In this document: in pieces, positions 5,601 to 52,477 of the stretch | Position numbering within the stretch: position 1 is the first letter of the stretch | Layout: each line of letters begins with the position of its first letter | Origin: Sphagnum compactum | Lineage: Eukaryota | Reading direction: 5' to 3' | Assembly (NCBI GenBank): GCA_965153455.1 | Contig: OZ234493.1 | Location: 2,666,001 to 2,730,000, forward strand | Length of the DNA: 64,000 nucleotides | Notes under the pieces: generated by a model | What the model was told of the DNA's origin: nothing | The model's database searches: none | The model's input: the letters and a program-made list of their open reading frames with translations, nothing else | Position numbers and translations under genes: made by a program

Positions 5601-5842
5601 TTTGGGCACAACTTAAGCTCAGCTTGCTCAGCGTTTTGCTCATCGTATGTTACTGAGCTGATGTCTGCTCAAAATGGTCACAGATTTGGGCACAACTTCA
5701 GTTCAGCTTGCTCAGCGTTTTGTTAATCGTATGTTACTGAGCTGATGTCTGCTCAAGATGGTCACAGCTTTGGGCACAACTTAAGCTCAGCTTGCTCAGC
5801 GCTTTGCTCATCATATGTTACTGAGCTGGTGTCTGCTCAAAA
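5601..5842. repeat. Tandem repeat, ~3 x 84 bp, in the 3' part of hAT copy 1
   Basis: TTTGGGCACAACTT recurs at 5601, 5685 and 5769; each unit contains CTCAGCTTGCTCAGC...TTACTGAGCTG. Confidence 0.9.
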
Positions 5843-18193: not shown

Positions 18194-21100
18194 ATGTTTC
18201 TTACCTCAGTGATGGCTTGCAGTCAAGGTGTAATGGTAGTTTTATTTAGCAGTGACTTGAGAAATCATAAAAAAATTCAGCACATGAGAGCACTTGGGCA
18301 TGCTAAGTTGTTTGTTGTGTTCTTGGTTGTGGCTTCTTTTCCTGCAGTGTTCACAAGAAGCCTTCAAGGCACAAGCAATAGCTGTTTATCACAGTGTGGG
18401 AACGTCACAAATTCCGTATCCATTTGGCACCGGTCCGGGATGTGGCCTGCCGGAGTTTTCTTTGAACTGCACTAGTGATGCGGGGTCAAATTTCTCAGCA
18501 AATCCAGCGCTGCTGCTTGCACCGGCCTGTGGTTCTTCTGGCAACTTTTATCAGGTCACAAGCATCTCAGCCAATACACTCATCATCAACGCCACTAATC
18601 TTGTAGCAAACTCCTGTGATCCAACCGTCGGTTCCGGAAATTATGCAAGCACAAGCGCTTGTCTAGGTCCAGCTTCAGCGCCATATGTTTTTACGTCGCA
18701 GAATAATTTATTTGCAGTGGAGTGCAGAGGATGGGGCCAGTTATTTGGTGATGGTGAATTTGTTGGCCAATGCTCAATTGGATGTACTGCTACCAGCCAA
18801 AATGAAATGGCCTACTGCCATAACTTTGAGTGCTGTACCACACCACAATTTCCCAATAGTGTGCGCAACATCACGATTTATGGAGGAGGTAGCTGTGGAC
18901 GGGCCAGCGTGATCTACCCTCCTACTTATGAGTGGGGACAACCATTGGGAGAATGGGGAGTTCAGTTGGGATGGGCCATTCCTGGACCGAGTTGCCAAAA
19001 CGCGACAACGCTGGGTAACTATTCTTGCGCTGCGACGGCAACCTGCCAGGATGCTCAATTCTCAGGTCTGACAGGGTACACATGTGCGTGCAATGCTGGT
19101 TACTATGGGGATGGATACGGGAACGGAACCGGATGTCACGGTAAGCATGACCTAAAGAGCTCGTGCTATTAATGTCCTACTTAGAATTTCATACTTTTCG
19201 TTTTGGCGATGCTAGAAGACCATTATTTGAGACCTTGCAAATCAAGATTCTAATCAGGGCGTAGAAGGGATGAGCAAACATCTGATAGTTTTGTGTGAAG
19301 ATTACCTGAAGTGATGGCCGAAACAAGAACTACACATGTTTCAAACAAATTGTCTTGGTCTTCTTTGCAGTCCTCATTTATTGCTTTCCATCGACCAATG
19401 TGTGCAATTCTTAGCTCAGTCTTGCTTATATGAAATAGTTCGTGCAAGTCTGAGAACTAAGTAGATTGTTAATCAACGTTGTCAAGTCAGCATGCATATC
19501 CTTTGACTAAAAATGTTCTCAACATTTGCTTTGATCTGTAGATATCAATGAGTGCTTGAACCAAACATTGAACAATTGTTCAAGCAATGCAAAGTGTATA
19601 AACACCATTGGATGTTACTATTGTAATTGCACCAAAAGGCTTCATGGGTGATGGCTACACAAATGGATCTTCATGTATTGGTAAGCTCCTAATGTTGAAT
19701 AAGTTATTATGCTGGTGTCATCCTGACTCTGACTTGGGCATCCCATCCAGTAAACTTTGTCTGAAAGATGTGGTCAACATATAAGTTTATATAAAGTAAT
19801 ATATTGACAAATAAAATTTTGTTTCTTGCAGCTGCAGAAATCAACAAATGCTTGAACTCCACATTGAATAATTGTTCTCCAAATGCAATTTGTACCAACT
19901 CGACAGGAGGTTATTATTGTAATTGCACCAACGGATTATCTGGTGATGGCTCTCGTGATGGGACAGGATGTCAATCTATTAAGAAACGTAACCTTTTACT
20001 AGTTGCAGGTATTTCACAATGCTACCTACTACCTACTATCGAAAACAATTGTATGATTTCTATTGTGTAATACCCTTGAAGGTTTTCAACATTTATTGTC
20101 ATTTGATGACTAAAGACTATATATAGAATCTTTGGTTGCAAGAGTGCAACCATTGAAAGATAGTTGTCAACCTTGAGAGTTTGATTCAAATCTAATTCCA
20201 TCCAAATGAGACAATTACAATCCTTCCATGATGGATCAGAGTACATACCCAAACATGATTGTTGAGAATCATTAACTTTGTTCATCAAGTCTGAACCATG
20301 AGTAATAGATCTTTGTTGCAAAGGTGTCCAATACTAGAACCAACATTTTAATCAATCCTTTTAGTCTTGACTTTGAGGTTTCATTGTGAATCATGATCTT
20401 CTCTAACTTCGATTGTTGCCAATAACCAATTTTTTTTGCTATGTAATTGTTGTAATGGGTTGCAACTAAAGATGCTTGAAATGCATTTTGATCCTAGGAC
20501 TACCGGCAATAGTAGCTATACTTGTGGGGCTCGGAGGTGTTCTATTGGCCTTGTTGTGTTGTATCAAAAGAACAAGGACACATAAGCAATTTGCTCGAAG
20601 AAATTTTGAAGCCTTGGGGAAGCTTCAAGACTTTTTCACCTCATTAACTGATGGTGAATCAAATGCAACAACTTTGTTTTCTTTGAAAGAGCTAGAAAAA
20701 GCAACAAATGGATTTGCTGATGACCAAAAGCTTGGTGTTGGAGGATTTGGCACAGTTTATAAAGGCACAATGGAAAGTGGATTGATTGTGGCGGTGAAAA
20801 GGACAAATACACTAGACACAAGCGGTGCACAACAATTTTTAAATGAAGTGGCCTTGTTATCCCAGGTCAATCATCGTAACCTTGTTCGTCTTCATGGATG
20901 CTGCTTGGAGACAGAAGTACCAATGCTTGTGTATGAATATGTCTTGAATGGAAACCTTAGTGAACATTTACGAGGTGAAAAATTTAGTGAACTTGGACAC
21001 TTGACTTGGCTCAAACGCATGCAAATTGCAATTGAAACTGCAGAGGCCATTACTTACCTCCATTCAGAAGCAAATCCACCCATATATCATAGGGATGTAA

Positions 21101-21762
21101 AATCAACAAACATTTTATTGGACAATAACTATGGTGTCAAAGTGTCAGATTTCGGAATATCAAAATTGATCCCATTAGGTGCAACCCATGTTTCAACAAC
21201 AGCGCAAGGAACACCGGGCTACTGGGACCCTGAGTACTTCCTATCATACCAACTAACTGACAAAAGTGATGTTTATAGCTTTGGAGTCATTTTGTTAGAA
21301 TTGATAACCTCTCAACCTCCTATGAATTTCAATCATGATCAAAATGAAATGAGCTTAGTAGCCATGTGCGTTCCTCAAATCAAGGAGGGTAATTTAGAGG
21401 CAACTGTAGACCCCATGTTATCATCAGATTCTGAAGAAATGGAAACAACTTTACAAGAAATTGAAAAAGTTGCCATTATGGCAGTGCATTGTTTGGCATT
21501 CAAAGGAGACGATTGACCTTCCATGAAGCAAGTGACAAAGGTTTTACATCAAATCAAAGGATGCAATGGTCAATGGAGTGAAGGTAGAAGAAACATGTCA
21601 AGTGAATTTGGACTTGTTGGGGTTCATGAAATGAAACTAGTTCAAGAGTTGAAAATGCATCAATTAATAGATGCAAACACTCCAAACTCGAGTCAAAGTT
21701 CTAATGCATTGTCTACTTCTAATCACTCCAATAACTCTTCAAGCTTTTGTGTAAGGAAATAG
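18194..21762 (+). pseudogene. WAK: Wall-associated receptor kinase copy A (pseudogene); exons ~18194-19140, 19542-19680, 19838-20008, 20498-21762
   Basis: GUB_WAK-type CG..IPYPFG...GC, three EGF-like modules, TM segment and RD kinase (HRDVKSTN, DFG, GTPGYWDPEY); GT-AG borders. Lesions: +1 A near 18410, +1 A near 19635 (139-bp exon), CGA>TGA at 21514-21516. Confidence 0.9.
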
Positions 21763-23937
21763 ATTTAAAATTTAAGCTAGTTGTAATTTAGAATGTATTT
21801 GGTTGAACTATTTATTATCTCCTTAAATGGTGCACATTGAATGTTTTCATACATGATGCACATAAAGGCAAAGTTGAATGGACCAAAATGTGACAAGGAA
21901 AAACATATATTTAAATACATTTTCTTTGTATTTTTTATTCATGAATTTAATAAGGGATAATAATGTAACTCCAATTCAATCATGTAATCCATCTCTATGA
22001 TTTGCGTGAAAGTTCAATATCTTGCATTAATGAGTCAAAGATAAATACATTTGCACATAGGTGTTGTCTAAATTATTCACAAATTTCATAAGTTGATGTC
22101 CGTGTCAAGATTATATAAAATAACACATAATAAAGTTAAAATATAATATATTTGAAAATATGTTTGGGTAATGTTTTTAAGGTCACTAGCACCTCAAATA
22201 TTAAAAGTCTATTTATGATTTATTATGTTTATATTCTATTGTCTATTGTCAAAAAATGCCCATGCAAGTTGCTATTCCACCAAAAATAGAGGATTTTAAA
22301 TATCAATGTTTGAAAAATAATAATAAAGAGGGGGTCGAAAGGTGTCTTTTTGAATTTGTCTTTTCAAAAAAAAATCAACACCATAGTCATAATTAGATTT
22401 CTAATACCTTTTGTACCAATTTGCATCCCACTTCTCTTTGATTCACTTTTATAAAACTTGTCTCCAATCCACCCAACATTCCATTCAAGTTCCACTAGAA
22501 ATGGGCAACTCCACCAAAGTGGAAGTGCTTGGGAAAAACCCCACTAATATTCCACTATGCACAAACCCATTCCATTGAAATCCACTCTTGTCCACTTGCG
22601 AACCAACATATTCACTATTAATACCAAAATATTACTTACAATAATATGTATAATGGATTCCAATGAAATTTAAAATAGTTCATTGACTTTAGCTTAGTCC
22701 ATTACTATTGCATTAATGTTTGGTGGAACGTAGGGAAATGTAGTGAACTTTGGTTTAGTGGATTCTAGCTAGTGAATATTTATTATCTAGCGGGTACAAC
22801 ATAGTGTACAAAGGGATGTGGACTTCAACATATGCGTCAAACCTAGCTAATGGTTTTGGATCAACTAGTGATCAATCCCCAATTTAATCATATTTGGAGT
22901 TCTCCAATAGTGATCATCAGCATTTCAATTCCACTAGAATAATTCATTAGTAGAATTCATATGTGCATGGACCAATATTGACTACCTAACATATGTACAC
23001 TAAGAGATATAAACTAAAATGGTGTGCAATGGAAATGCAATCGCATTGATTTGAGACATTTTATTCCTTTGCAACTAAAGTTCACATCTTGAACATGGAT
23101 GAAAAACGCAACACATTCTTTCTAGCAATGTTATATTAGTACCTAATAACTATGTCATGCACTTATTCATCAAAACATTATAGCATAAATTTTTAACCTC
23201 TATGCGATAGTGGTAGACAAAGTAATGGTGTAGGCATATGAACAACCATCCATAGGATCACCAAAACAATTGGTGGTGGAATATGCCACTGCTAGGTGGA
23301 AGATTTGTCAGTGGGTGTAGTGGAATCTTAGTGGCCAAGGCACAAGAATAATTTGTTTTTTACAGTTAAATTTTGGTTTTTTTCTTTCCCTTCAATCAAT
23401 GTTTCCATGAGGCCCAATGGAATTAACCCATGTGATTTATTGGGCCCACATTGCATGTTTTAAGCAAAAGTTGGACCAAGATATTCTCAATTGTTGTGCA
23501 TGCAATTCACACTCCATTATGGATTTTGCACCCCCTTAATTAATATTTTGATCATTTGTTATTTGTTGTTTGATTTTAAAGTGTTGAAAGCCGGTTATGT
23601 GCATTTCACAACTTCCAATGTAATCCAAATGCATGGAATACACATTAGTGTTGTGCATGTAAATGGTTTGAGATTTACACTCCATGTAAATGTGGGGTAA
23701 ATACATTTCAAGGTATTAGAACTGACGTCATTAAGCAAATAAACACAAACTACGCACCTTTTTCAATTGGGGTTCATTGCATGGTTCATAAATGTAATCT
23801 TGCATTCAAGACATTGTTTACCTCGGGAATAATTAATAGCATTGAAGGTTTGCTACAGAACTGCCATGCATATTTTGTTCACAACCCAAAGAGGCACATT
23901 GACATGATGGAAACAAAAGGGCTTAAAATGCTCAAAA

Positions 23938-26900
23938 CGCTAGTAGAAAACCCCCCTTTTTCAACCAAAAGTTTTCAACTACATGACATTTGCAACTATG
24001 TTTCAAGTAGATTTTTAAAAATTTTTAAAATAGAAATATGGCAATTACCAATTAAGTTGATTCGTTTACTATATTAGTATGTCGTTGAAAGCATTTTTCA
24101 ACTGTGTGGTCATTTGTCGAATATTCTTGGCATCTAAAGTTCTTTAATTGGCGCATAGTCAAGACATTGACTAATGTTCAACTATTTTGGATGATAAAAT
24201 GTACTAAAGGATGGATGAAATATAGTCTTGTTTGCAACTATCTCTTTCAACTAGGTTAAACAATTAATAGGCAATTTTAATTTTATACATGTAATATTAT
24301 AATATTTATTTAAAATCATGATAACATTAAACTACGTGTAAAATATTTTTTATAAATGAATGGTTTTTTTTGTGCATATAAATATTAAACTTTAATTTCA
24401 AAATAAAGTTTAATTTTTTAAAAAATGTTAGTACTAATGTTTATGTTCAATACACATGTAATTTATTATTTTTATGTAAATCATTACAACATATCAAGTA
24501 ATGATATATAATTAATAATATTGTGCGACTATAATGTTTATTCATTTTTATACACATGATATCTTAATATTTGTTTAAAATTATGATAAAAACTCATTAA
24601 ACATTAATGTACCCTATGTCACTAGCCCAAGTTTGAATGCATTCAACTGAATTTTCCTTCCAAATCCCTTTTTACAATTTGTTTGAATTTCCAACAACAA
24701 TACGTACCCACCAAAAATTCAATAATAATGTTCAAATTTTAGGTCTCAAAATTACGAAATCAACTTTATTAAATCGAACTTGGTGAGGGCTTTCAAACAA
24801 TACCAAGAACGCCCCCAAGTTCCAATATAGTTTTCAATTTTGGTCTTTCAAAAAATTCAATGAAAAAATGGTTCAATACTCAATAAATTCCACACTGTAG
24901 TTCCAAACATTTAAAACCAAGTCATTGCACCCTTATTCATTGAAAAGTTTTTGATGACAAGTTCCATAACATAACCTAAGACATTGTGGTTTGGGAAATA
25001 TCATTATGACAAAACAAAACAAACTACCTTCCTTCATGGATAAATAAGGTAACATGTGTTGTTGGCCCCAAATGTGAACACACTCAATTCATTTTCCCTT
25101 GTAAACCCAATTTGTTCTAATTTGTTTGAATTTTTAACAACAAAACTAATTCAAAATTCAATATCTTCCACACCTTAAATATGAAAATTATGAAATAAAT
25201 TTCATTAAATCTAACTTAGCGATTATTTTCCACTAAATACACCTTTGGATTCCAGTAAATTTTTTATTTTTGATGTTTATTAAGAAAATGGTTCAGTATT
25301 CAATAACCTTTGCGTTGTAACTACAAAACATTTCAACCCAAGTCAGCGCACCCCTATTCATTGTTAGGTTTTCAAAGATATCAATAGCATTATATGAAGT
25401 AATTTGGTTTAGGAAATATCAACAAGATAGAATAAAACAAAACAAATTATCTACCTTCATTAATAGATTAAATTATGTGTAAATTATCTTTGTATAAAAT
25501 GAATGGTTATGTATGATGCAAATATTTTTTGTGCACACAAATAATAAAATTTTATTGAAGGAAATTGAATGAAATTTTGAAATATAAATTTGTAATAATG
25601 TGCATGTTCAATACACCTAATTATTATTTATATGTAAATTGGATTTTAGTTTACAACATATCAAATAATGATACATAATTAATATTTTTTGTGGAAATTT
25701 AATGTTTATTAATCTTTATAGACATGATATCTCAATAGTTTCTTTAAATTGCAATAAAAATTCATTAAACATTAAATTACATGTAAATTCCATTTGTGGA
25801 AATGAATGCTTATGTATGATGCAATTTGTTTTTGTGCATATAAATATTAAAATTTAATTTCAAAATAAAATTTAAGCAAATTTTGAAATATGAATTTGTA
25901 ATAATGTAAGTTCAATATATGTAATTTATTATTTCTGTGTAAATCAAATGTTAATCTACAACAAATCAAGTAATGATACATAATTCATAACTTTTTGGAA
26001 CTTTAATGTTTATTCATTTTTATATGTGTGATGTCTTAATATATATTTTAAATTACAATAAAGATTCATTAATTATTAAGGTAAACAAATGTTTTTTGTA
26101 TCCATGAATGATTACATGTATGAAGAATTTTTTTGTGCATGTAAATATTACACTTTAATTTGAAAATAAAATTTAAAGAAATTCTGAAATATAAGTCAAC
26201 TTAATATGTGTATGTTCAATACATGCATAATTTATAATTTCTATGTAAATTCAATTTTAATTTTCAACATATCAAGTAAGGATATTTAGTGTGTAATTTA
26301 TTATTTCCATGTAGATTCAATTTTAATTTACAGCATATCATGTAATGATACATAATTAATAACTTTCAAAATTTTAATTTTAATTTTAATTTTTGCTATT
26401 AGTTCCAATAAGTTTTTCATCTATTAAATTTATTTATTTATTTATTTATGATTCAACTATAATAATTTTTAGAATAATTAGTAAATATATTTAATAAATT
26501 ATCATGTAATTTCAAATATTATTTTATTTAACACTATGATACTATAATTTTTTTTTTCATATTTAATATTTATTATACTAAGTCATTTAATAGTTCCAAC
26601 AAGTTAGATAAAAATATGAAAAAAAATAGTTAAATAACTAGCCTAACCTAATTACTAGTTACAATATTATTAATATTAATATTATAATTGTAGTCAATTA
26701 TTAATTATCACAACATTATAATGATTATTGTAACTAAAATATCATATAAAATCTATTATTGAATAATATATTTGAGTTAATTCTTTGTTTTATTAAATGT
26801 TAAAAAGAATTTATAATGAATTTTGAACTAAAAAATTCAGTGATAATTAATTACTTAATAAATAAATACATTTAATTTTCTGATTTTTCAAAAAAAAACT

Positions 26901-28559
26901 AATAACCATATTATTTAATAAATGATGATAATATGTTTAATTGTTTAATTATACAACTATATAGTTAAAAATAGTTGATGAATAATTACTTCAAGTAATT
27001 AAGGTAAGTAGCTAGACCTAGGCTAGATAGATTATTAGTTTAGGTCTAGGCCTAATTAAGTTTAGACTAGCTTGTACAATTAGATTACAACTATTTGAGT
27101 TGCAATTAAGTTGTAACTAGGTTGCAACTAGGGTAGACATCAAATGGTACTCTATCATCAAACATTTTGAAGTTTCCCTTCATTTTAACACCAAATTGAA
27201 CATTTTTTATGTCATTGGAAGCACAAAACAGAAAGTTACAAATGATCTTAGAACCTCAAAAGCAAAAGAACAAAATAGAGAATGCAAAAAAAGAAAGATT
27301 GATATTTTGTTTCAAATTTTGTCTCTAGACCCCCTTTATTTCTAGTAACTATATCTTGTTCATTTCTCATTCATTCTGAACGATTTTAAAAGATACAAAT
27401 GCGCTATCTCAAAATCTATAAGACTTGTTGAAAGTGAAAAATAAAAAAAACAATAATTGAAAAGTTGAAGCTTCAAAATCATTCTGAACACTTATGAAAA
27501 AATCCAAAGCACAACCCCCTTCACTTTGAAATGACATATCTTACTCATTTTCAATTAGATTACAACGTTTTTTACATATTTGGATACGCCAAGTGGAGGA
27601 TTACAAAATTGTTTTAAATTTCAAAAGGAACAGACCATGGACAAGAGAGTTATAATGATCCAATATCGTTAAGTGTTTGGTGATAGGTGTGTTTTCCCTA
27701 GGTTACAACTAAAACTTTTATCCCATATTGTTTCATTTCCATTCCATGAATCCAAACTATATAAAGGAATGCACTAGGATTATTGGAGAACACAATAAAC
27801 ATGAAAATCTAATAGCCATTTGGGATGAGCCAATAAAACAGGTTCAACCTTAAAAGTTAAACCAAATGAAATAGGACTTCATTTATTAATTGCCATGTGG
27901 TTTAGGTCTAGGCCTAACATAGGTGCCTAAATCTAGCCCTACTTTAAGCCTAGATTAAATGGCCTATGTTTAAGTTTAACCTATGTGCTTAAGTTTAGAG
28001 CTAACATATTCTTAGGCACCAAGTGCCTAAACTTTTGATGTAGATGTGCCATGTGTCATTTAACTATGCGTTGACCCCACATTTTATGAATGTGCCACAT
28101 GTTAACATTGTTAGTGTGCCACGTGTCACCAAACCACTGGCCAAATGTTCAATTTACATAGCTGCAACATAGTCAAAATGTTCAATTTACATAATTGCAA
28201 CCTAGTTGAAAGTGTAATTATATTTTTAGTTGATGTCATGCTTAGTTAGCAGATGAAGTTCATCCATTAGTTGAATGCAATTGACAACATCCCTCGACTA
28301 TATTGGTAGAACAATTTTCAACTAAATTGGTAAAAAGTGGCACATAGTGGCTATTGTTGTGGTGTTGACATGTGGCATACACTTTCCACTATAATTTCAC
28401 TCTTGACTTGTACTTTTCAACATTATTGGTTAGTAATTGCAAAAAATATTTCCTAGTTGTAAGAAATAAATTGCAACTATATGTGTAGTTTTCGACTTGA
28501 TTTATAGTTGAATAGTAGTTGAAAACATAGTTGCAAAAGGGGGGTGTTTTTTACTAGTG
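23938..28559. mobile_element. Non-autonomous CACTA-type element, 4.6 kb
   Basis: Left end CGCTAGTAGAAAACCCCCCTTTT; right end reverse-complements to CACTAGTAAAAAACACCCCCCTTTT; 3-bp TSD AAA/AAA; TTGCAACTA/TAGTTG subterminal repeats. Removing it rejoins the host frame (ATG CTC AAA ATC GTT AAA ACG). Confidence 0.82.
24326..26370. repeat. AT-rich ~300-bp tandem units inside the CACTA element, interrupted by a duplicated ~440-bp block
   Basis: Unit starts near 24326, 25468, 25771 and 26075. AATTTGTTTGAATTT..AACAACAA occurs at ~24676 and ~25120. Confidence 0.7.
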
Positions 28560-29471
28560 AAATCGTTAAAACGCCCTAGATATCTCTCATGGGTCCTCTA
28601 AGGAACATTTTGTTAAAATTCAAACCAATTCTGGCCAAGATTTCTATGGATAGCAACAACAACAAGCTGCGAAGGTAACTTTTTGCCTTAAACTTCTATA
28701 TGTTTCTTGCATTGTATGTTATTTGTTGTAATGTTTTTGCATTTTCTAATTGATGGTTTGGTTGCATTTGCAAACTAATTTGACCTTACTACATGTTGGG
28801 AATGTGTTACATCATACTTTTGTTGGAAAACATTGATTCTCTTGTGCAATTTACATAGTAGGATGATGTTTTCATATGTGATTTGGTGACTATAGTAAAA
28901 GTTTGCCAGGGTAGCTCTATTTTTGATACAATAATGGCAGTTCTTCATTTTCTAGTGATGAATTTTGGGCATTTAAAGGTTTGTTGGATTAAAGCCATGA
29001 CCACATCCACATGAAGTGGGTGGCAGAATTGAATGACTCTAGTGAACATTGTGCCTTCATTGTGAATGATGATAAACTTTGGGCCATCCACAATGATCCA
29101 ATATTGAATGTTAGGATAGTTGTGACTAAGGATTCTTTTCAAAGTCTAATTTCACAAGTGCAGTCAAAGTGTTCATGTCAGTTTCTAACCTTATTTTCTT
29201 TTTGATTCATCTTGATGTGTTTTGACTTAAGGGTTTTGTTTTCTTTGAAACATAAATTTTAGTTTGGGACTTTGTTTTCTTTCAATCTATGTTGCAACTT
29301 TCCTTTTTTAATATGTCTTTGTTGGTTTGTGGGTGCATCTCATAGTAGTGACATACGAAATACGCGTATTTTTCAAAGGTGCTCAAAAATAAGTATTTTC
29401 AAGTATTTTAAAATTTGAAAATGTGAATACATGAAATACGTGAATACGATGAGCAAAATGCTGTTCCCGCT

Positions 29472-31412
29472 CTAATCGTCGTTTGGCTCTTCTTCTTCCA
29501 TCCAACTAACCATCTCTTCCTCAAACTCAATGCTGTTCACTTTATGTGCTAGGCGCAGGTCCGAGAAGACATGCACTAGATCCTGAGCTCTTTGCGAGGT
29601 CAACCTATTTCGCTTTTTCGAATGGATGAAATCGTAAGTGCTGCAGTTGCGTTCGCACGCTGAGGCTGCAGAACATTGGCTGAGGACCGTCACGCCTACT
29701 GTCTGAAGCTTTGGAACTTGCTGACCCCACTGCTGCCAAAATTTCCACCCGGGCATCGCTCTCATGGCCGTTTGAATGTCGGGTCTGCCAAACAAACCTT
29801 CCTGGTTTCTAAACTGCGCCAATTGCTGCAGGACTTTTGCTTGATCGTCTACATTTGGGACGAGCTTCTCTAGGATGTTCAAAAACCCTTGCATCACTTC
29901 CGCATTCTGGTCCTGTCCATATTCTGCTGACTGGAACTCCGACTCCAGAACAAACCCAGCCGAGTGCATATCTGAATGCAAGTATTCCCAGCACTTGCGC
30001 CAAAGCCAGCTGATCTGCTCATACTTGACAGCAGAAAGCTTCACCCCCGGATGCTGCTCGCTGGTTCCCTCCTTGAGCGCCCCCAGCTCCTCACCAATCA
30101 AGAACATGGCATAGTAAACCTTTCCCACAACTGGAACACCCTTGTCACACTGGCGCAAAAGGCAGACTATCGATTCTGAAACAGCCAACAACTCCTTCAC
30201 ACCCTTCCAAAACGCAGCGGAAGTCAGGATGTCGTGCACCTCCTCTCCCTCCATCTCATGTGACGACTTCTGGTTCCACTCCCCCCAAGCGTCGCTGACC
30301 ACAAGCTGCTGCAGTGATGCCTTCACCTCATGCATGCGCTGTAGCATGATGAAGTTGGTGGCAAATCTGGTCTCCCCTGGTTTCAAGAGCTCTAGCTTGG
30401 ACAGGCTCCTAAAGAGAGCTAGACTCTTATGATGGTTTGTGATGAACTTCAGCGCTGTTCTTGCCTTGGCTATGACGGAGGAGACCCAATCCAGCTTGCC
30501 CATGTCCTCGAGCAACAGATCTAGGCAGTGCGGGGTGCAAGGAGTAAATGTGATATGGGGAAAGTGGACCTCTAGCTTGCGACCTGCAGCCTTGCAAACT
30601 GCTGCACTGTCCATGCACACCTGGACCACAATCTCTACCCCCACATCCTCGATTGCCTTGCCAACAACCTGCGCAATGAAGTCTGCATCCTTGGTATCCC
30701 CACTTGTGTCTACACTCTCAAGAAACTTCTCGCCCTTGGGTGTGACCATCAGAAGATTGAGAAGAGGCCTATTCTGAGTGTCTGACCACCCATCGCTGGT
30801 TATGGTTGCCTTGCTGCTCCGCGCTGACGCCATAAATGATTTGAGTTCTACTGCCACTGATACCTTTTCCTTGTCTAGCAGGGTGGTACGAAGAGATATA
30901 AGACTCGGCAACTTGTAGTTCTCGCCAAAATCAGCAGTAGCTTCAACGGCTGCCTTGAAATGAGGGTCATTGATCAGGCGGAAAGAAAGACCATTGCCAT
31001 AAAAGGCACGACCCCACAGAGCATCTACTTTAGACTTATCTTGCTTTCCAAAGGCAACTTTGAGAATGCTCTGCTTTTTGGTGGGGCCTTGCGGGAGAGC
31101 AGCTACAGCCTCATCCAGATCTTGCACCTTCCGTTTTTGCGTTTCCTGTTCTCTTTTCGCCTGATCAATATCTTGAAGCTGTTTTTTGAGGGCTTGGGGG
31201 CATTTGGTGCACTTCTTGACTCCACAAGCCACCTGACCCAAGAAGTGGCCCCGGATTCTTGTGGCACCCCCCCAAAACACGAGCTGACAGTGCCCACACT
31301 TGACTTGAAAGTTCCCCCCCGCTTTCTTAGGTTCCTGGAGGATGGTGACCTCGGTCCACTCGGGTCCTTTCTCCTTCCCCATTCCAAAGGTCGCCCTGCT
31401 CAATTGTAGCAT
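29472..31412 (-). CDS. hAT transposase, uninterrupted 646-aa ORF (real start may be the second Met, MGKEKG)
   Basis: BED finger (W...VKCGHC...RIRGHF...C); DDE candidates TSDGWSD, CMDSAA and CERN; CxxH (CTPHC); C-terminal dimerisation region; no stops. ERNWS is changed to ERNCS. Confidence 0.92.
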   Translation of the reverse strand: MLQLSRATFGMGKEKGPEWTEVTILQEPKKAGGNFQVKCGHCQLVFWGGATRIRGHFLGQVACGVKKCTKCPQALKKQLQDIDQAKREQETQKRKVQDLDEAVAALPQGPTKKQSILKVAFGKQDKSKVDALWGRAFYGNGLSFRLINDPHFKAAVEATADFGENYKLPSLISLRTTLLDKEKVSVAVELKSFMASARSSKATITSDGWSDTQNRPLLNLLMVTPKGEKFLESVDTSGDTKDADFIAQVVGKAIEDVGVEIVVQVCMDSAAVCKAAGRKLEVHFPHITFTPCTPHCLDLLLEDMGKLDWVSSVIAKARTALKFITNHHKSLALFRSLSKLELLKPGETRFATNFIMLQRMHEVKASLQQLVVSDAWGEWNQKSSHEMEGEEVHDILTSAAFWKGVKELLAVSESIVCLLRQCDKGVPVVGKVYYAMFLIGEELGALKEGTSEQHPGVKLSAVKYEQISWLWRKCWEYLHSDMHSAGFVLESEFQSAEYGQDQNAEVMQGFLNILEKLVPNVDDQAKVLQQLAQFRNQEGLFGRPDIQTAMRAMPGWKFWQQWGQQVPKLQTVGVTVLSQCSAASACERNCSTYDFIHSKKRNRLTSQRAQDLVHVFSDLRLAHKVNSIEFEEEMVSWMEEEEPNDD

Positions 31413-31634
31413 GAAAGAAAGTTGAAGTTATTACTTAGTATCAGATCCAGACTTGCAAGTTGCAACAGTCTGATTCCGAATGCTGTCAGTGTCATGGCTG
31501 AGCCATCCGAGTCATGGCCAATCAAAAGATGGCCAATCTTTCTTAAGAGACTCTGATTAGTGCCAAAGAGAATGTCTTATCAGGAGGGGAAGGAGAGAGA
31601 GACAGAGATAGAGAGTGACAGAGAGCAGGAAGAA

Positions 31635-34500
31635 TCAAACTAGCTCTTCTTCCAAGAGGGTATGCTTTAGTGCTTCATAGCACATGAAGGAGAGACCTGC
31701 TGCTGGCATGAGCTTAAGGCAACTGGGGCCTAAACCTCTATACAAACCCTTCAAGCCTCGCTCTTTTGCAATTCCCCTAAGTGCATTTAATGTGCCTTTA
31801 TACACTACCCTCCCCTTCAATGCCCCTACCTGCACAAAAGAATCAAACCCCAAAGTTTCAGCATAATGTCTCTTAGGTGGAAGGTGATAACCCCAAATTG
31901 TTTTCTAGTTTTCCAACCTGAGCAGTTCTCTGTTCTTTGCACCTTCCAGAAGGTCCTATAAAAGACTCATCCACTCCTTGGCTTGTTTTCTCTCTAGGGA
32001 ACAGATGTTCAAAGGACATGACTTCCTGTTTGAGTTTCAATTTTGAGGTACTAACCCATACAGATCACATTTTCAGAGCTTTGCTTTGATCCCCAAAACT
32101 GTTCCATGAATTTTGCTTGGTTGTAATAAACAAGCTAGGCCTTGAATCGAAGCACCATCCATGAAACAAATCACGCTAGAAACAAGGTTCATTCAAACAT
32201 ACACATGTGGAAAGGGATTAGGGTTCTAAGGTTGATGAAGCAATACATGTTCACAGGGTGGATATGGATGACTCCAAAATGCTTGAGATCTTAGGTTATA
32301 AAAAATCTTTGATGAAATTGATGTGACACACATGATTTGTTGAGGCTGTAGTAGAGTCTAATTGTGGAAGATGGGGTCAGTGTAGAGATCTTGACCTGCA
32401 TGTGCTTGCGCGCCACTTCTAGAGGAAATGTGCTCGTGCTGGCTATTGCTCCAGCAAGCGAGCCAATCAGCAATGTCTGTATGTTCCCAACCCTGTCTGT
32501 CTTACTGCATCTCTTGTAAAGAGAACGTAATGAACCATACACAAAATAGTTGACACCAGCATACGGGGTCACCCCAATGACACTTGGAGCAAGGCCTCGA
32601 TAAAGCTCCAAAACACCTTCTTCAGATACTATCCTCCAAAGAGCATGCAAAATGCCTCGATACTCATCAGGCTGATTGATCACAAAACCAAAAGAGATTT
32701 CAGTTCAATTTCCTTCCATGAGAAATTGTGTTTGTTGAACCCTTTAAGACTTCTTCAAGCAACATGTTTTTCTCTTTCTGCTTTTGCCTATGTTGTTCAG
32801 ATCTAAGGGTTCCATGTTTGAGGGTAACAATTCAGCACACCAATGCTGTTGAGATTTCATTGCTATATTTTATGTGTTCTAGGGATTCCATGTATAAGGT
32901 CATGGGCATCACTGAATCCCTGATGTTCTTTTGAGAGATTTAAACTTTGGGCAAGTTTTCAAACCAGCAAGTTGGAAACACTATGAATTGGAAAATACCT
33001 ACCTGAATTGTGAGGCGAGTTTTGAGAAGCTCAAGTGGGTACATACACACAGTTGATGAAATGCCCGCACAGGAGCCTGCAATTGGTGATACTGGCAGAA
33101 ATGCAAGCTTGCCTGGTGTCCCGTCCTTTGGACTCAGGTATGCCTTCACAAAATCATATGCAAAGAGCTGCAAAGAACATATTAAGGCACAATCTCCCAT
33201 CAGAAGCTCCACTTTTGTTCAAGAGAAAAGAAAACAAACAGAGGTACAATCTCCAATCAGAAACTCAACTTTTGTTCAGAAGAAAAACACAAACAGATCC
33301 AGTTAGGGTTAGGAAGCTCAACTTTTGTTCAGAAGGAAAACAAACAAACAGATCCAGATAGCTTTTGCCTGCCCAAATTAGGTCAACTAGAAATGAGAAG
33401 CCACCCCCAGTGAATCTTCATTGAGGGGAGTCAGTTTTTCATTGCCTGATTATGGTGATCTAGCATGCGGGATCACACAAGATCACACATGTTATGTGGC
33501 AAAACAAGATTCAACAAGACTGAAAAATGTGGAATACACTTCCAAAAATACCGAAGATTACTGATAGGTACATACCTTGCTCTTCTGTTTTGGAACCAGA
33601 CTTCCACTTGCCGAGGTCGCAAGTTTAGTTGCTTTGCCAAGGCGCTCTTTTGCTTCTGCAGAGGGGAGCCAGCCACACAGATATCATCAGAAATAAGCAG
33701 CAGAAGAAACGGTACAGAACCGACAATGACCTAAAGGAAAAACTCTGGACAAGAATCATGAGAGCGGCAGCAGAAGAGAGTCGGACATCCTTGTTCATAC
33801 CGGGTTAAGAGTGCTATGATCTTTGAAGCTTTCTTCTAGGAGAGCTGATTGTTCTTTGGAGAGACGAAGCTTCTTCCTCGTGGTTCCTCCTCCTCCCTCG
33901 TCTTCATCATCGCTACAACCTCTGGAGCTCAGATCGCACGCTCTTTCCCGATCCAGCAGCTGTTCGAACAACTGATCGTGCTGCTGAAGATGCCAACAGC
34001 AAAGGAGTTGAAAAACTACAAAGGAAGAAAAACTCTGCCAGATCTGAAGCTCACCCAAGAAAAAAATTTGTGAAAAACGTGAAGAAATGCGGTTTGCAAT
34101 CTCGAGCTTGCTTGCTTGCTTTGATCGTGGGTGAATACTTGTTTGAAGCTTTTCACTGGGGAATAGAAGTAATGAGAGAGAGAGAGAGAGAGTAACAATA
34201 ACACTAACCTCGATGGCTTTGCTGGGGGCGACGCGAATGACATTGATGGCGTTGCCACGGAAAAGCCCAGGCCATCCTTCGTTGGTGATGATCCAGTGAA
34301 AGATTTCAGGGAGCGAATGGCCATGGCTGCCAACCATCAAATGCGTGCGGATGGTCTCGACTCTCCAATGGTGCCATTGCAATTCTTGAGAAAGCTCCAG
34401 CTATGGCTCTGCTCAGTAACCTTCTGCCGTTGGGCCCTAGTTTCAGCTTGAAGCTCGATTTTCTTCTTCTCTCTTGTGCAGCTTGTTCTCTCTCACCCAT
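31635..34500 (-). pseudogene. BT1: Captured mitochondrial-carrier-family gene, BRITTLE1-type adenine nucleotide transporter; exons 34500-34209, 33167-33003, 32671-32396, 31829-31635
   Basis: Three carrier signatures ([32 protein letters not shown]) plus [25 protein letters not shown] and LGPSCLKLMPAAGLSFMCYE. Phase-0 GT-AG introns. A 7-bp insertion near 34356-34362 frameshifts exon 1. Confidence 0.9.
33576..33983 (-). pseudogene. Captured HD-Zip class II homeobox fragment, two exons (~33983-33801 and 33655-33576)
   Basis: [38 protein letters not shown], then a GT..AG intron, then the 80-bp exon [27 protein letters not shown] followed by GTATGT. No leucine-zipper/CPSCE exon follows. Confidence 0.93.
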
Positions 34501-37500
34501 TGCTATTGTGTCTTCAGAGTCCTGTTCTGAATCGTCGATTTTGGCGGCGAAAATGTAACTAGGTTGTTAACTACTGTAGAGTCTAGCAGACTGCAGTTTT
34601 TGCGGCCCGGTAACGGTTCTTTGCATAACCTTTATCACTCTGCGTATTTTGGGCCGTATTTTTGAAAAAAAACAAAAAAAACGTATAATACGCGTATGTT
34701 TGAATCGAATTGAGCGTATGTCACTACTATGGTGCATCTGCCTTGCTTTCAATGTGTGTTGCTGTTTGTAACATTTTTTTTTTTCAATTTTTTTTGTTAG
34801 TTTACAGTTGCATCTACCCAACTAATCAAAGAGTTGGACAACCGCTTCCCCTAGCGTGCCTTGCTCAATGCCATGGGCATTGTATGTCCACAGTACTAGT
34901 TGCAGCCCAATTATGATGATAGTTTTACCAAGCATTTGGAAGTATGAAAGTTTGGTACTGTGATCCAAAACTCTTGGGGTTTGGAGGTTCAAGTTCATTG
35001 GTTGCACCATTGCTTGATTGTTGGGGGCTAGATGCGCATAGCAAGGGATGTTCAAATTGTGTATGGAAAACAATTTTAAGGCTGCCATGGAACCACCTTT
35101 TGATTTGAATCCATTGATTCGAATTTGGAAGACAATTGATGCATCTTAAGTTTTCATGCATTCTAGAGTATTTTAAGTTGGTAAAAATGGCCATAGTCCA
35201 TGTTAAAGGGAGTGTAGAAAATGAGAGATGTTTTTCATTTCTTGCATGTCGTAAGAACAAGTTGCGAGTACTTTAGATCCTCACCTTCCTCTTGTTGTTA
35301 GCATGTATAACCAAAAGTTTTTTTTTACTTTAAAAAGTTTTTTTGTACATTGCCACATTTGATGCTTGGATTAGAGCAATTGATCGTTACAGTATTCTTG
35401 CGTAAATGACATTTTGTTCTAACATTTCTAGAAATGCATAGTTCTTGCCTTCCATACTTTTATGACTTTGTTCACCCTGGCAATAGCTTCATGTTCTTTG
35501 TTGGCCTAGGCCTTTTGTTTCTAGCATCTTAGTATGTTTAGTGAACCATTTGAAGATATGGAAATTTGTGGTCTTGGTTTGAAACTTTATTTTCAATGAG
35601 AGTTTTTTTCAATGAACATTGTTTGATAAGTAGTTTGCTTCTCACTCACAAGGCAATGGAGCCAACAACATCACATCCTAAATCTAGACAGTAGCCTTAA
35701 GTCTATATTAAAATGTTGATTGTCGCCATTATTGGCATGTTTCGAATTCCCTTTGATAGCCATTACCTTTCATTTGCAACATACAAATTATTGCCAATAT
35801 CTTGCATTTTTCAGCATATGCGCGCCACCTCCTTTAAATAATATTAAAAAAGTATTGCCACTTGGATTGTGGAATCCAGGGCTCCTGAAGTGATGTGGGC
35901 ACTTTATGAAAAACCAAGAAAAAAAAGGGCTGGAAGAGAGTACTCTAAGTTCCATCAAAGAAAGAAAGACCCGTGGGACTTGAATCATGGTGTGGTTGTG
36001 AGAGACTTATTCCACTTTGCATAGTTGTGGTATTCTTCTCTATCCTAGAAAGACCATAAGGCCCATGAGAATGCTTGTTTTTTCTTATGTATTCCTTTTC
36101 ATTCTTTTAATGATTGTTGAAGCACCAGCTAAGTACCATCAATGATGAATACTACCCATTGCCCACAAAATGAGTCTATGAAGAAGATGATGGCACCATT
36201 TGACCACCATTGGGAAAATAAATCAATTGACAAAATAGTTTGATTGGTGGTCTGTCGTGAAGATGGTCCCATGGGACCACCATTTTGAGGATTGTAACCT
36301 ATTTGGGTGCATTATTCTCACGCACTTTTTCAGGCTTTTTCCTAAGTAGGACAGGTAGTCAGTCATCTACTGGTTCCATTTTTGGAAGAGTCGGTTTTAC
36401 TCGGAATGTGAATTCTTAGAGAACAATGTTGTGCCATCATTTGAATTTTTAAAGTATAGGGTAAGTCCCCTGCTGTTAAGGATTTACGTGGCATAACAAA
36501 CCGAGGTGATCAATGCCTTCCAAAATAATTCCCTCCTTCACAGTGATCTGACTGGGTCACATCTTTCACCATAGGGATCTTATAAAATTATGCTATTTGC
36601 CCTAAGGAACATTTCGTAAGCCTAAATTCAAAAAATAATTCACCCTCCAGAGAAAGATTTAGCCAAATTTGACTACAAGCTAAATATGGAAGTAAAACTT
36701 GTAAATATCCTTTTTTTTTTTTTCCCCTACCTACTTGAACCATTTATAGAAATCTGGTGATTTTTCTTCTTTTTTTTTCGAATGCTGGCTATTAAAAATC
36801 TCAAAAGAACTTGATTTCAGCACTTTTTATTTTTAATATAACTGTTTCGCTATTATATATGGCCAAGAAAAAAGAGGCAGGTGCTGATTGTTTTGCCTGA
36901 CATGACATGGAAGGCCCCAACATTATATGTGCACATAGTGATGACGATGATGATGATGATGAAACCCTGCCAAACTTTATAAAAAGAAAGCACCCAAGAA
37001 GGGGGGAGAAAAACAAACAAGGGGCAAGGACAAAAGTCCAGGCAAGCAAACAGCCCAACAAAGGTGGGCCACAAGGAGGAAAGGGCACCACTAAGAATAG
37101 TTGTTATTGCAAGAGTACAAAAGTCTCACCTGCTTCTTTTTTATTCCTGACATGATTTCCTTTCTTGGCAGGGTTTTAGTATTATACCGTAGCCTAGGGT
37201 CAATTTCCACATTGAGAAAACAAATAATTATTATTTTTCCAAAAAAGATTTTAAATTTTTTTTGAAATTATATTATTTTCCATCATCTGCTATAATAATA
37301 TTGTGATATGAGTAGTGAAATTATTCAGAGTGTAGCCTCCGATAATAATTATGATGATTTTCAACATGTCAACTTCATATTTTCACAAGATTTCATTTCA
37401 CTATTTTGAGAATTATATAATGACGAAACTGACCTTAGGGTAAGGTAGGCACATATAATGTTTGGGAGAAACAAGGGGCCCTTTGCTGGCCTTTATGTAC

Positions 37501-37855
37501 TATGTCAGGTGTAGTAGGTTCATCAAGTGATAAGAAGAGGTTTGAGCAGGGCCTGTTCCAGCATGACCAGTATTTGCACCAATGATTCACATCACAGTAG
37601 TGTTCCCTGGACCCTCTAAGATAATAAGTTGGGGGTGCTTATTCATACTTCTAAACCCTAAACAATTTTCAAGTTGTACCCGTAATCATGTTAATCGGAA
37701 TTTTTTATATTAGTTTGATTTATTCAGTTGCCCGAGCTCTCTGCTCAAGTCTCAGCTCGCTGCTTTGGCGAGATGATCTTCGCAATGCATCTAGTTACAC
37801 TCCTGTATATGGTCATTCTTTGATTGGGTTGGCAACAGTTTTGGATTGGTGACAT

Positions 37856-40800
37856 ATGTTTATCACATCAGCGATGGCTTGCAGTCCAGGTGTAGATATG
37901 GTAGCGTTTGGTAGTGGTCTGAGGTACATAAGTTTTGGGCACACGAGAGCACTTGGGTATGCATCTAACGTGTTTGTCGTGTTCTTGGTTGTGAGTTCTC
38001 TGCCTGCAGTGCTCACAAGAAGTCTTCAAGGCTGCTTATCACAGTGTGGGAACGTCGCAATCCCGTATCCATTTGGCACCAGTCCGGGATGTGGCCTGCC
38101 GGAGTTTTCTTTGAATTGCAGCAGCGATGGATGGTGGGCAAATGCGGTGCTGCTGCTTGCGCCCCCCTGTGGTCGCTCTGGCAACTTTATCCAGGTCACA
38201 AGCATCTCAGCCAACACACTCATCATCAGCGCGATTCGCCTTGTAACTTTCTCCTGTGACCCAACCCTTGGTTCCGGAAATGCAACGAGCGCTTGTCTCG
38301 GTCCAGCTTCAGCGCCTTATGTTTTTACACCGCAGAATAATTTATTTGCAGGGGGTTGCGGCGCATGGGGCGAGTTATATGGTGACGATGAATTTGTTGG
38401 CCGGTGCTCGACTCAAGGATGTAATAGTACCGGTCAAAATGAAATAACCGACTGTACCACACCACAATTTCCCAAAGGTGTGCGCAACATCACGATTTAT
38501 GGAGGAGGCAACTGTGGATGGGCCAGCGTGATCTACCCGCCTACTTATGACGGGGGAGTATGGGGAGCTCAGTTGGGATGGGCCATTCCTGGACCGAGTT
38601 GCCAAAACGCGACAACGCTGCCTAACTATTCTTGCGCTGCGATGGCAACCTGCCAGGATGCTCAATTCCCAGGTCTGAGCGGGTACACATGTGCGTGCAA
38701 TGCTGGTTACGATGGGGATGGATACGCGAACGGAATCGGATGTCACGGTAAGCATGACCTCAAGAGCTCGTGCTATTAATGTCCTACTTAGAATTTCATG
38801 CTTTTCGTTTTGGCCATGTCTAGGAGACCATTATTCGACACCTTGCAAATCAAGATTCTATTCAGGGCGTAGAAGGGATGAGCAAACATCTGATAGTTTT
38901 GTGTGAAGATTACCTGAAGTGATGGCCGAAACAAGAACGACACATGTTTCAAACAAATTGTCTTGGTCTTCTTTGCAGTCCTCATTTATTGCTCTCCATC
39001 GACCAATGTGTGCAATTCTTAGCTCGGTCTTGCTTATATGCAATAGTTCGTGCAAGTCTGAGAACTAGCTAGATTGTTAATCAACGTTGTCAAGTCAGCA
39101 GTTCAATAAGTTATCATGCTGGTGTCATGGTGACTCGGACTTGGACATCCCATTCAGTAAACTTTGCCTGAAAGATGTGGTCAACACACAAGTTTGTATA
39201 AAGTGATCTACTGACAAACAAATTTTTTTTTCTTGCAACTGCAGAAATCAACAAATGCTTGAACTCCACATTGAATAATTGTTCTCCAAATGCAATTTGT
39301 ACCAACACGACTGGAGGTTACTATTGTAATTGCACCAACGGATTCTCTGGTGATGGCTCTCATGATGGGACAGGATGTCAATCTATCAGGAAACATAACC
39401 TTTTACTAGTTGCAGGTATTTCACAATGCTACCTGCCATCTAAACAATTGTATAATTTCTAATGTGCAATACCCTTCAAGGTTTTCAACATTTATTGTCA
39501 TTTGATGACTAAGGGGCTATATATACAATCTTTGGATGCAAGAGTGCAAACATTGAAAGACAATTGTCAACTTTGAGAGTTTGACTAAGCTCTAGTTCCA
39601 TCCAAATGAGACAATTACAGTCCTTCCACAATGGATCAAAGTACATACCCAAACATGATTGTTGAGATCATTAACATCGTTTATCAAGTATGAACCATGA
39701 CTAATAGATATTTGTTGCAAAGTTGATCAATACTAGAACCAATTTTGTAATCAATCGTTGTAGTCTTGACTTTGAGGTTTCATTGTGAATCATGATCTTC
39801 TCTAATGTTAATTGTTGTCAATAACCAAAAGATTGTTGTTATGTAATTGTTGTAATGGGTTGCAACTAAAGATAATTGAAATGCATTTTGATCCTAGGAC
39901 TATCGGCAACAACAGCTATACTTGTGGGGCTCGGAGGTGTTCTATTGGCCTTGTTGTGTTGTATCAAAAGAACAAGGAAACATAAGCAATTTGCTCGAAG
40001 AAATTTTGAAGCCTTGGGGAAGCTTCAAGATTTTTTCACCTCATTGACCGATGGTGAATCGAATACAACAACGTTGTTTTCTTTGAAAGAGTTAGAAAAA
40101 GCAACAAATGGATTTTCCGATGACCAAAAGCTTGGTGTTGGAGGATTTGGCACAGTTTATAAAGGCACAATGGAAAGTGGATTGATTGTGGCAGTGAAAA
40201 GGACAAATAAACTAGACACAAGTGGTGCACAACAATTTCTAAATGAAGTGGCCTTGTTATCTCAGGTCAATCATCGTAACCTTGTCCGTCTTCATGGATG
40301 CTGCTTGGAGACAGAAGTACCAATGCTTGTGTATGAATATGTCCCAAATGGAAACCTTAGTGAACATTTACGAGGTGAAAACTCTAGTGAACTTGGACAG
40401 TTGACTTGGCCCAAACGCATGCAAATTGCGATTGAAACTGCAGAGGCCATTACTTACCTCCATTCAGAAGCAAATCCGCCCATATATCATAGGGATGTGA
40501 AATCAGCCAACATATTATTAAACAATAAGTATGGTGTTAAAGTATCAGATTTTGGAATCTCAAAGTTGATCCCATTAGATGCAACCCATGTTTCAACAAT
40601 AGCACAAGGGACACCAGGCTATTGGGACCCTGAGTATTTCCTATCATACCAGTTAACTCACAAAAGTGATGTTTATAGCTTTGGAGTCATTTTGTTGGAA
40701 TTGATAACCTCTCAACCTCCTGTGGACCTCAATCGTGACAAAATGGAAATGAGCCTAGTAGCCATGTGCATTCCTCAAATCAAGGAAGGTAATTTTGAGG

Positions 40801-41072
40801 CAATTGTAGACCCTAAGTTATTATCATCAAATTTTGAAGAAATGGAAACAACTCTACAAGAAATTGAGAAAGTTGCCACTATGGCGATGCATTGTTTGGC
40901 GTTCAAAGGAGATGATCGACCTTCCATGAAACAAGTGACAAAGGTTTTACATCAAATCAAAGGTGATTGTCGATGGAATGAAGGCAAAGGAAACCTTTCA
41001 AGTGAGTTTGGACTTGTTGGGGTCCATGAAATGGAATTGGTTCAATTAATTGATGCAAATATTGCAAATTAA
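37856..41072 (+). CDS. WAK: Wall-associated receptor kinase copy B, apparently intact, ~745 aa; exons 37856-38747, 39245-39415, 39898-41072
   Basis: Exons total 2238 nt in frame with phase-1 GT-AG introns. Hydrophobic signal region, CGNVAIPYPFG, two EGF-like modules, TM segment and a complete RD kinase (GVGGFGTVYKG, VAVK, HRDVKSAN, DFG). The start Met is uncertain. Confidence 0.9.
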
Positions 41073-51667: not shown

Positions 51668-52477
51668 TGTCGCAACCCCACTTTGAGAGAGTGTGAGGAT
51701 GAGACTCACACTTTCGAAATGGGGACTTGGGAGTCCTCCCGGACTCCCAAAACTTCAGAGTTCAATGCAGGGGCCAAAACACCTCGCATTGAAAAGTTCT
51801 TAATATCATTGAAAAGCTATTGAAGTGCAGATGTTGAAAATGGGCTGGCATGAGCCATTTGGACATCTGCAGCATAAGTTATGACCAAAAGAAGGGCCGG
51901 GAGTCAAACTGGCAGTTTGGCTCCCGACAACTAAAAGTCGGGAATTGACCTGACCCCAGTGTGTGCAGGTAAAGTACACACCGTTGGAAAGCTCTTGACG
52001 AGAACTATAACTTTGCTTTAAACCTCATCCCAATAGGAGGTCTGAGCAAAGAGTTATAGCATCGCAAAGTTGTGGGAGTCTAAACCGGGATAGTTTCGGG
52101 ACTCCTCTTTGGGAGTCCCAGGACAAAAAACCATTCGGGCGTAGGCTCCGCGGAGAGACGCAGAGAATACTATATGGGGGAAGATGGTGGTTTCCCCTGA
52201 GTCCGGGCCGTGGTGAGTCTTGTGAATCCAGAGTTGCCCGTGGCTTGTCCTAGCACTAAAGGTGATCTAGAAAGTGAACTAACCAACTTGTTGGTTGGTT
52301 TGATGTAGATTTGAGTGAGTAACTAAAGCTTGTCACTCTTCCTAGTCCCATCTCGGAGCTTCAGCACGCCCCTCTACCCATTTTAGTGCTGAGAGCGTGC
52401 CCCGAGTTCCTCACAATTTCGCTGTTTCAGTAACTTGGACCCATCTTGGGTCTAACTAGGAACTTGGGAGCGCGTCA
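51668..52477 (+). mobile_element. Solo LTR, 810 bp, same family as 1641-2547
   Basis: TGTCGCAACCC...GCGCGTCA (TG..CA); flanks TTAAT/TTAAC (4/5); GC-rich island in AT-rich surroundings. Confidence 0.78.

Follow-up and report, generated by a model that had tools for sequence, protein, structure and literature searches.

When a DNA transposon carries pieces of host genes between the same terminal inverted repeats (TIRs) as its own transposase gene, it may be asked whether the host DNA was taken up before or after the element reached its present site, and whether the element can move that DNA by itself. Both questions are raised by a hAT element of 5391 bp at positions 29341-34731 of a 64,000-nt stretch of Sphagnum compactum DNA (hereafter the window, meaning the whole stretch analysed). 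A first-pass annotation, made from the letters of the window, had described one pair of perfect TIRs and a perfect duplication of the target site (TSD), 8 bp long, enclosing both an open transposase frame and cargo from two unrelated host genes, and had remarked that the TSD alone could not settle the order of capture and insertion. The answer reached here is that this is probably a transduplicating hAT of Sphagnum, the cargo of which was captured first and then spread inside a transposase-bearing element, and the window copy of which has since decayed.

The boundaries are as first described. The TIR at the transposase-3' end, CATAGTAGTGACATACG (17 nt, 29341-29357, + strand), is 100% complementary to its inverted copy at 34715-34731, and the TSD, GTGCATCT, can be read directly at 29333-29340 and again, identically, at 34732-34739. 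The TIR motif has four matches in the window against 0.14 expected, a number that none of 100 shuffles gave. Between the TSD copies, on the − strand, the element consists of a short form of the 3' subterminal region (29341-29471), an open reading frame (ORF) for a 646-aa transposase (29472-31412), element leader, of which the 118 bp immediately upstream of the ATG are preserved (31413-31530), the cargo, and a 5' subterminal region of 202 bp (34530-34731) that includes the second TIR. ATACG/CGTAT motifs are concentrated at the two ends, with five in the 131 bp of the 3' region and six in the 202 bp of the 5' region, as against one in the 5058-bp interior.

The limits of the cargo are given by a second copy of the element in the same window, a cargo-free sibling of 2870 bp at 3038-5907 (+ strand, and thus opposite in orientation), which has the same perfect TIRs and a TSD of its own, CATATTCA, and the transposase of which is broken, with a single in-frame stop and, when aligned with the open copy, 14 gap columns. 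Its positions 3038-3238 align to 34731-34530 (94.6% identity) and 3341-5395 to 31530-29462 (96.3%), the first 118 bp of the latter (3341-3458) corresponding to the retained leader. The cargo is thereby fixed as a 2999-bp insert, 31531-34529, standing in the 5' subterminal region where the sibling has 102 bp, and the limits given in the first-pass annotation proved exact, as did its placing of the cargo upstream of the transposase and in the same orientation. The same two points emerge from public read runs, of which 24 were listed, 14 contained at least half of the sampled words and four were examined in detail: contigs of cargo-free copies diverge from the window exactly at 31530 and 34530.

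Among six translated cargo pieces, four matched the Pfam family Mito_carr, one matched Homeodomain and one had no match, which bears out the origin from two unrelated host genes. The cargo is a 5'-truncated, intron-bearing BT1-like mitochondrial-carrier gene with an HD-Zip fragment inside its intron 1, all on the − strand. The carrier part comprises an exon-1 fragment (34209-34529) that begins within a coding exon of the parent and has an in-frame ATG at 34500, exon 2 (33003-33167; translation, Pfam and reads), exon 3 (32396-32671; Mito_carr, 3.2e-19, with read joints) and exon 4 (31635-31829), which is recognised by translation and ends in the natural stop at 31635-31637; the intron between exons 3 and 4 (31830-32395) is backed by spliced reads. 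The HD-Zip fragment (33576-33986) is made up of a part-exon (33986-33801), a 145-bp intron (33800-33656) that is spanned by spliced reads, and a further exon (33655-33576), with a Homeodomain match of 1.4e-10. It is nested within carrier intron 1 and does not lie beside the carrier fragment, a point on which the first description needs correcting. At the 3' cargo junction, a 7-nt filler (31531-31537), recognised by comparison with the other junction type described below, separates the carrier sequence from the leader. Intron 1 also contains, at 33176-33380 just upstream of carrier exon 2, a degenerate tandem array of three to four units, each 53-57 bp long.

The proteins nearest to the carrier cargo are Sphagnum carriers and angiosperm proteins named 'adenine nucleotide transporter BT1', in agreement with a peat moss as the source of the window. 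Exons 3-4 have 95-97% amino-acid identity to two full-length Sphagnum carriers, P0277 and P0280 (532-536 aa), both of which have about 215 extra N-terminal residues, running '...GSEQDSEETIAMGEREQ...' exactly at the start of the cargo. Because the full-length carriers continue for that distance beyond the cargo start, neither the promoter nor the N-terminal extension is part of the captured fragment, a truncation that has to be added to the first description. Transcripts of the parents leave the cargo at 33986, 33575 and 33003, where RNA reads continue into parent exons. Past 33575, reads of RNA run X24 translate by hand as TKLKQTEVDC, which we take to be the start of an HD-Zip class II zipper; since these reads pass from the cargo into further HD-Zip-like sequence, the HD-Zip parents are separate, expressed genes. 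Parents of both the carrier and the HD-Zip piece therefore exist and are expressed.

The order of capture and insertion is decided by the further copies. A search of public metagenome contigs with the transposase gave 78 loci (93 of 117 candidate stretches were relatives). The 5' end of the ORF is present at 47 loci, of which 41 are cargo-free, as recognised by a TIR 400-431 bp upstream (39) or by cargo-free sequence (two), three have too little upstream sequence, and three, L049 (96.6% identity), L002 (95.5%) and L052 (95.2%), have the cargo-bearing form, which makes three of the 78 in all. These three are mutually 93.5-94.7% identical, their flanks do not match those of the window element, and the cargo copies other than that of the window keep the transposase region in degraded form. 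In L049 the 5' TIR, the entire cargo and adjoining ORF sequence are contiguous, with 96.7% identity to the window in 3319 aligned bases and a private 136-bp tandem duplication over the 5' element-cargo junction (about 355-490 of L049); L002 and L052 cross the 3' cargo junction. The 'go-back' joint of the L049 duplication is also present in RNA-library run X15. The short form of the 3' subterminal region is found again in L002 and in a further locus, L001. In the read runs, summed contig depth is higher over the cargo than over the flanks, at about 3-4x in X4 and about 10x in X8, depth not being the same as copy number.

At the 3' junction L052 differs in an informative way, having 261 bp in place of the 7-nt filler of the window, of which about 165 bp are additional cargo and about 95 are element bases from the 102 that the cargo replaced in the window. 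Since L052 retains both, it represents the older form, and the window-type junction is derived from it by deletion. Both junction types recur in annotated genes. Among 26 carrier-like proteins examined, ten end in element-derived sequence, four of them with the window-type and six with the L052-type junction, and gene models with such tails are present in S. fallax, S. jensenii, S. troendelagicum, S. balticum and S. tenellum. One of them, P0245, which has the window-type junction, is translated straight through the filler, and in some models the HD-Zip exons are spliced, out of frame, between carrier exons. A gene or gene fragment that lies between TIRs and is replicated in the genome together with the element, as in the definition of transduplication quoted in PMC3538342, is thus found in L049, L002 and L052 and in the gene models of five species.

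A third line of evidence is an unoccupied site. In DNA run X4, a contig with a depth of 5.76 (shorter side 42 nt) joins 29340 to 34742 with six letters between them and a single copy of the TSD, as befits an unoccupied site and not a typical excision footprint, and a second contig of the same run (depth 4.44) crosses the filled left junction. The same cargo with the same junctions in copies with other flanks, the gene models of five species and the empty site together mean that capture preceded insertion at this locus, which answers the question that the TSD could not. A single cargo-bearing copy, which together with an inactive transposase would have reduced the case to a one-off capture, is contradicted by L049, L002, L052 and the gene models. 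The further suggestion that the whole is an assembly chimera, or that the cargo was captured in place at this single locus after insertion, is scarcely credible, as nothing was found in its support beyond the fact that none of the listed contigs spans the whole 5.8-kb stretch, whereas both junctions are crossed by independent contigs, the 5' one by L049 and the 3' one by L049 and L002, and P0245 is translated over the filler junction.

The likely series of events is as follows. Host DNA would have entered the 5' subterminal region of an ancestral full-length element at a distance of about 200 bp from its end, most likely by template switching during repair of an excision gap. The DNA acquired would have been the 3' two-thirds of a BT1-like carrier gene with its introns together with the two-exon HD-Zip piece, and a later 261-bp deletion with a 7-nt filler would have produced the window-type 3' junction. 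Both TIRs and both subterminal motif clusters were retained, and with the ends retained the composite of cargo and transposase gene was probably cut and pasted by the family transposase to new sites in several Sphagnum lineages. We infer that mobilisation was by that transposase, whether supplied by the element's own gene or by those of cargo-free siblings. The window copy, one of these insertions, has decayed by about 2% since it inserted, mainly through C>T changes.

Several observations weigh against this reconstruction. Paired TSDs are readable for no cargo-bearing copy other than that of the window, as each contig shows one end, so that transposition of the other copies rests on their differing flanks. 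Metagenome contigs may include chimeras; at L001 the 8-mers on the two sides are not alike. The empty site is supported by one contig, which has four extra bases beside the site. Between the window and the X4 contig across the filled junction, 8 of 229 flank bases differ, so that the X4 sample represents a different genotype or a different species, and the unoccupied site may be an allele or, should the sample be allopolyploid, a homeologous locus. The HD-Zip piece may have entered with the same capture, may have been added later or may have pre-existed in intron 1 of the parent. Finally, in pairwise comparisons of the window ORF with other copies the median ratio of non-synonymous to synonymous substitution rates (dN/dS) is 0.44, so part of the history of the family was under constraint and the open ORF of the window could be functional.

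The last point leads to the second question, whether the window copy moves itself, and here the nature of the transposase matters. The 646-aa ORF, confirmed as open between the TIRs, matches DUF659 (5.8e-43) and Dimer_Tnp_hAT (PF05699, 1.7e-4), the latter marginally (21.7 bits against a cut-off of 21.4). A search of solved structures with the single sequence gave only weak matches to the Hermes transposase (E 0.03-0.06), and a profile of 19 relatives matched Hermes with an E of 1.5e-11, dimerisation region included. D207, D268 and E587, which do not vary among the 19 sequences, are aligned to the DLW, TD and SER motifs of Hermes, the aligned residues of which we take to be the catalytic ones, as expected for the D-D-E triad of an RNase-H-like core. 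At the N-terminus, C39, C42, H56 and C68 are likewise invariant in all 19, and Pfam zf-BED gave no match. The domain matches and the D-D-E triad, taken with the short, perfect 17-bp TIRs and the perfect 8-bp TSD, place the element and its transposase in the hAT superfamily.

It is conceivable, as the first-pass annotation suggested, that the window copy is autonomous and active at present, with a 646-aa product that would move both element and cargo, and several features speak for this. The ORF, full in length and open in the window, is open in none of the 78 metagenome loci, where the longest ORF of the family has 465 aa, and it is collinear with the open family consensus without a single indel. 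The catalytic D, D and E are all present, the TIRs and TSD are perfect, the subterminal motifs are retained at both ends, the empty site in X4 is compatible with mobility, and the median dN/dS noted above fits a constrained gene. As the window copy is open and descends from the ancestor that made the capture, the cargo-bearing lineage must moreover have had an open ORF until the insertion into the window. In the protein collection, ten relatives at 82-95% identity are fragments of 357-478 aa and none of at least 600 aa exceeds 63% identity, which is weak evidence since transposon genes are often masked before annotation.

Against this stands the pattern of change within the ORF. Compared with the family consensus, 37 of its 1941 bases are changed; 30 of these changes are C>T or G>A, a deamination-like spectrum, and 24 are non-synonymous against 13 synonymous. 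At four positions the residue departs from one shared by 18 of 18 relatives: R474C, P491S, A573G and W590C. Among the other copies of the family, A573G is family-wide, R474C occurs in four of 43 and P491S in five of 42, and W590C in none of 38; W590 lies three residues after the catalytic E587, in alignment with the aromatic residue of the Hermes 'SERTFS'. At 29993 and 29643, contigs or reads in all four runs examined show the conserved base and not that of the window. When 37 mutations of the observed spectrum were placed on the open consensus in 5000 simulations, 9.4% of the ORFs remained open by chance. Pairwise dN/dS is 0.56 to L002 and 0.72 to L049; with the median, these values show what is usual where master lineages are under constraint and copies decay neutrally once inserted. 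In addition, the 3-kb insert now lies between the ORF and the 202 bp at the 5' end of the element.

Expression points the same way. No RNA specific to the window copy was found in the examined runs, in which reads on the cargo exons continue into parent exons, and the bin over the 5' element-cargo junction holds zero reads. The few X24 reads on the ORF differ from the window copy at 3-6 positions and carry variants of other copies, from which they therefore derive. The open frame is thus probably that of a moderately young and presumably silenced copy that has survived by luck rather than through current function. It is accordingly unlikely that the window copy is active and autonomous today, and we give the same small chance to the broader idea of a cargo-bearing lineage that has, or had until recently, true autonomy, with the window copy as a surviving master that moves 3 kb of composite, intron-bearing host DNA. 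Were it true, a bryophyte would harbour an active, self-mobile gene shuttle of a class that Pack-TYPE pipelines exclude by definition. For the spread that did occur, mobilisation in trans by cargo-free siblings is as possible as self-mobilisation.

A different account of the many cargo copies would dispense with transposition after the capture and have them spread by segmental or whole-genome duplication together with speciation. It draws on the fact that only one end is seen of each further cargo copy, and several of the named Sphagnum species with such gene models are, we assume, possibly allopolyploid. It is nonetheless very unlikely. The flanks of L049 (on the 5' side) and of L002 (on the 3' side) are unlike those of the window throughout, and for the window copy there is both a perfect 8-bp TSD of its own and a contig of the empty site. 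In S. fallax, moreover, cargo-type models have the locus tags 01G, 11G, 14G and 19G, which on our own reading of the tags mark four different linkage groups, and the full-length carrier genes have 02G and 05G.

It could also be argued that the cargo is a functional, element-borne gene, either a truncated carrier or a chimeric transcript under selection. Open gene models of 251-312 aa are annotated in six named Sphagnum species, S. compactum included, all cargo introns keep GT..AG ends, and an RNA-library contig of X15 carries an element-cargo junction of the L049 type, in a library the contigs of which include intronic sequence and in which DNA carry-over is possible. Selection on the cargo was judged by comparing exon with intron divergence and not by codon-level dN/dS, since the reading frame is disrupted by small indels that distinguish the window from L049. 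The two copies differ at 29 of 949 exon sites (3.06%) and 43 of 1524 intron sites (2.82%); with exons diverging about as much as introns, there is no sign of purifying selection. Exon 1 of the window copy carries a private 7-bp insertion (about 34355-34365), overlooked in the first description, that shifts the frame and is absent from both L049 and an X15 contig. The fragment also lacks a promoter and some 215 parental codons, and the spliced reads observed run on into parent exons. A selected function is on these grounds highly improbable, and, as part of the explanation preferred here, the cargo is probably a neutrally evolving pseudogene.

Transduplication by a transposase-bearing hAT thus remains the preferred reading. 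Among 13 complete metagenome copies, seven have a perfect 8-bp TSD, five have one with a single-base difference and in one the two 8-mers do not match. A joint of 29409 to 34675 with an 11-nt filler in X15, matched by loose ends in X4 and X8, suggests a deletion derivative of the family of about 140 bp that resembles a miniature inverted-repeat transposable element. The sibling at 3038-5907 has a longer 3' subterminal region with tandem repeats of about 60 bp. A BLAST search of the whole window against the 78 metagenome loci found no shared flanks, only other repeats at 74-90% identity: those of the window at 1646-2549, 50065-50391, 51667-52395 and 62962-63393 recur in the flanks of metagenome hAT copies.

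The element lies in AT-rich intergenic DNA, element and cargo having 39-53% GC and the flanks 33-38%, between two tandem genes for wall-associated-kinase-like receptor kinases with near-identical kinase domains. The kinase domain of the first is at 20470-21516 and that of the second at 39876-41072, the latter gene also having GUB_WAK_bind and EGF domains at 37853-38779. A very AT-rich stretch (26000-27000, GC 15-17%) is found about 2.5 kb from the insertion. An ORF of 142 aa at 23649-24077, which looked hAT-like by eye owing to a CxxH-like stretch, was set aside as it has no Pfam match.

Pack-TYPE elements, Pack-hAT among them, are defined as non-autonomous (Gisby and Catoni 2022, PMC8903248). 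The Sphagnum element resembles Pack-hAT in having host coding DNA between hAT TIRs, an 8-bp TSD, multiple copies and a potential for exon shuffling, and departs from the definition in that it contains transposase sequence, namely the open 646-aa ORF. In the packFinder pipeline of the same work any transposase BLAST match leads to the label 'autonomous TE' and cargo is not sought in such elements, so that the Sphagnum element would be missed or filed elsewhere; the Pack-hAT examples in S5 Fig of PMC8903248 might include transposase-bearing cases. Pack-hAT-N8_XT of the western clawed frog is similar in that hAT-borne host sequence occurs at several loci, there with distinct TSDs (Tan et al. 2021, PMC8277862), and differs in its 291-bp cargo, non-autonomous nature and animal host. 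The premise of novelty in the first-pass annotation, that gene-capturing TIR elements are typically non-autonomous, is weakened by the transposase-bearing, cargo-carrying hATs already in print from grapevine and fungi (PMC2528002, PMC3538342, PMC6710886).

The closest plant parallel in these sources is the Hatvine-6 group of grapevine, hATs with a common transposase coding sequence and TIRs and with variable regions that match genic introns and exons (Benjak et al. 2008, PMC2528002). Both are cases of transduplication of intron-bearing genic DNA by a transposase-bearing hAT. The extra sequence of Hatvine-6 is described there as 'often unique, or shared by only few elements', whereas in Sphagnum one composite cargo with fixed junctions is present in many copies and several species; a moss as host and a transposase of the DUF659 type likewise set it apart from Hatvine-6 (PMC2528002). 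In fungi, Pyrenophora tritici-repentis has 10 copies of a 5.6-kb hAT that carries a histone H3-like gene and is called 'likely autonomous' by the authors (PMC3538342), and in Pseudocercospora fijiensis a DUF659-type hAT with H3 has been amplified to hundreds of copies (PMC6710886). Like these, the Sphagnum element is a full-length, multi-copy hAT with TIRs and an 8-bp TSD that carries host gene sequence (PMC3538342, PMC6710886). In P. fijiensis, though, the cargo is a complete, intron-less and thus transcript-derived H3 (PMC6710886), and in Sphagnum it is genomic, intron-bearing, 5'-truncated and a composite of two genes.

A literature search found no paper joining 'Sphagnum' with 'transduplic*', and among papers on Sphagnum, hAT and 'transposable elements' no title concerned such an element, titles being what was compared. 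The locus thus offers a clean and datable case of a full-length DNA transposon spreading several kb of intron-bearing host genes over a plant genus. It also bears on the annotation quality of peat-moss genomes, several of which list the resulting chimeric carrier/HD-Zip/transposon models as ordinary genes, and on how often transposase-encoding elements, which fall outside Pack-TYPE surveys, take part in exon shuffling. The kind of element is already known elsewhere, and to the grapevine and fungal examples Sphagnum adds a bryophyte one.

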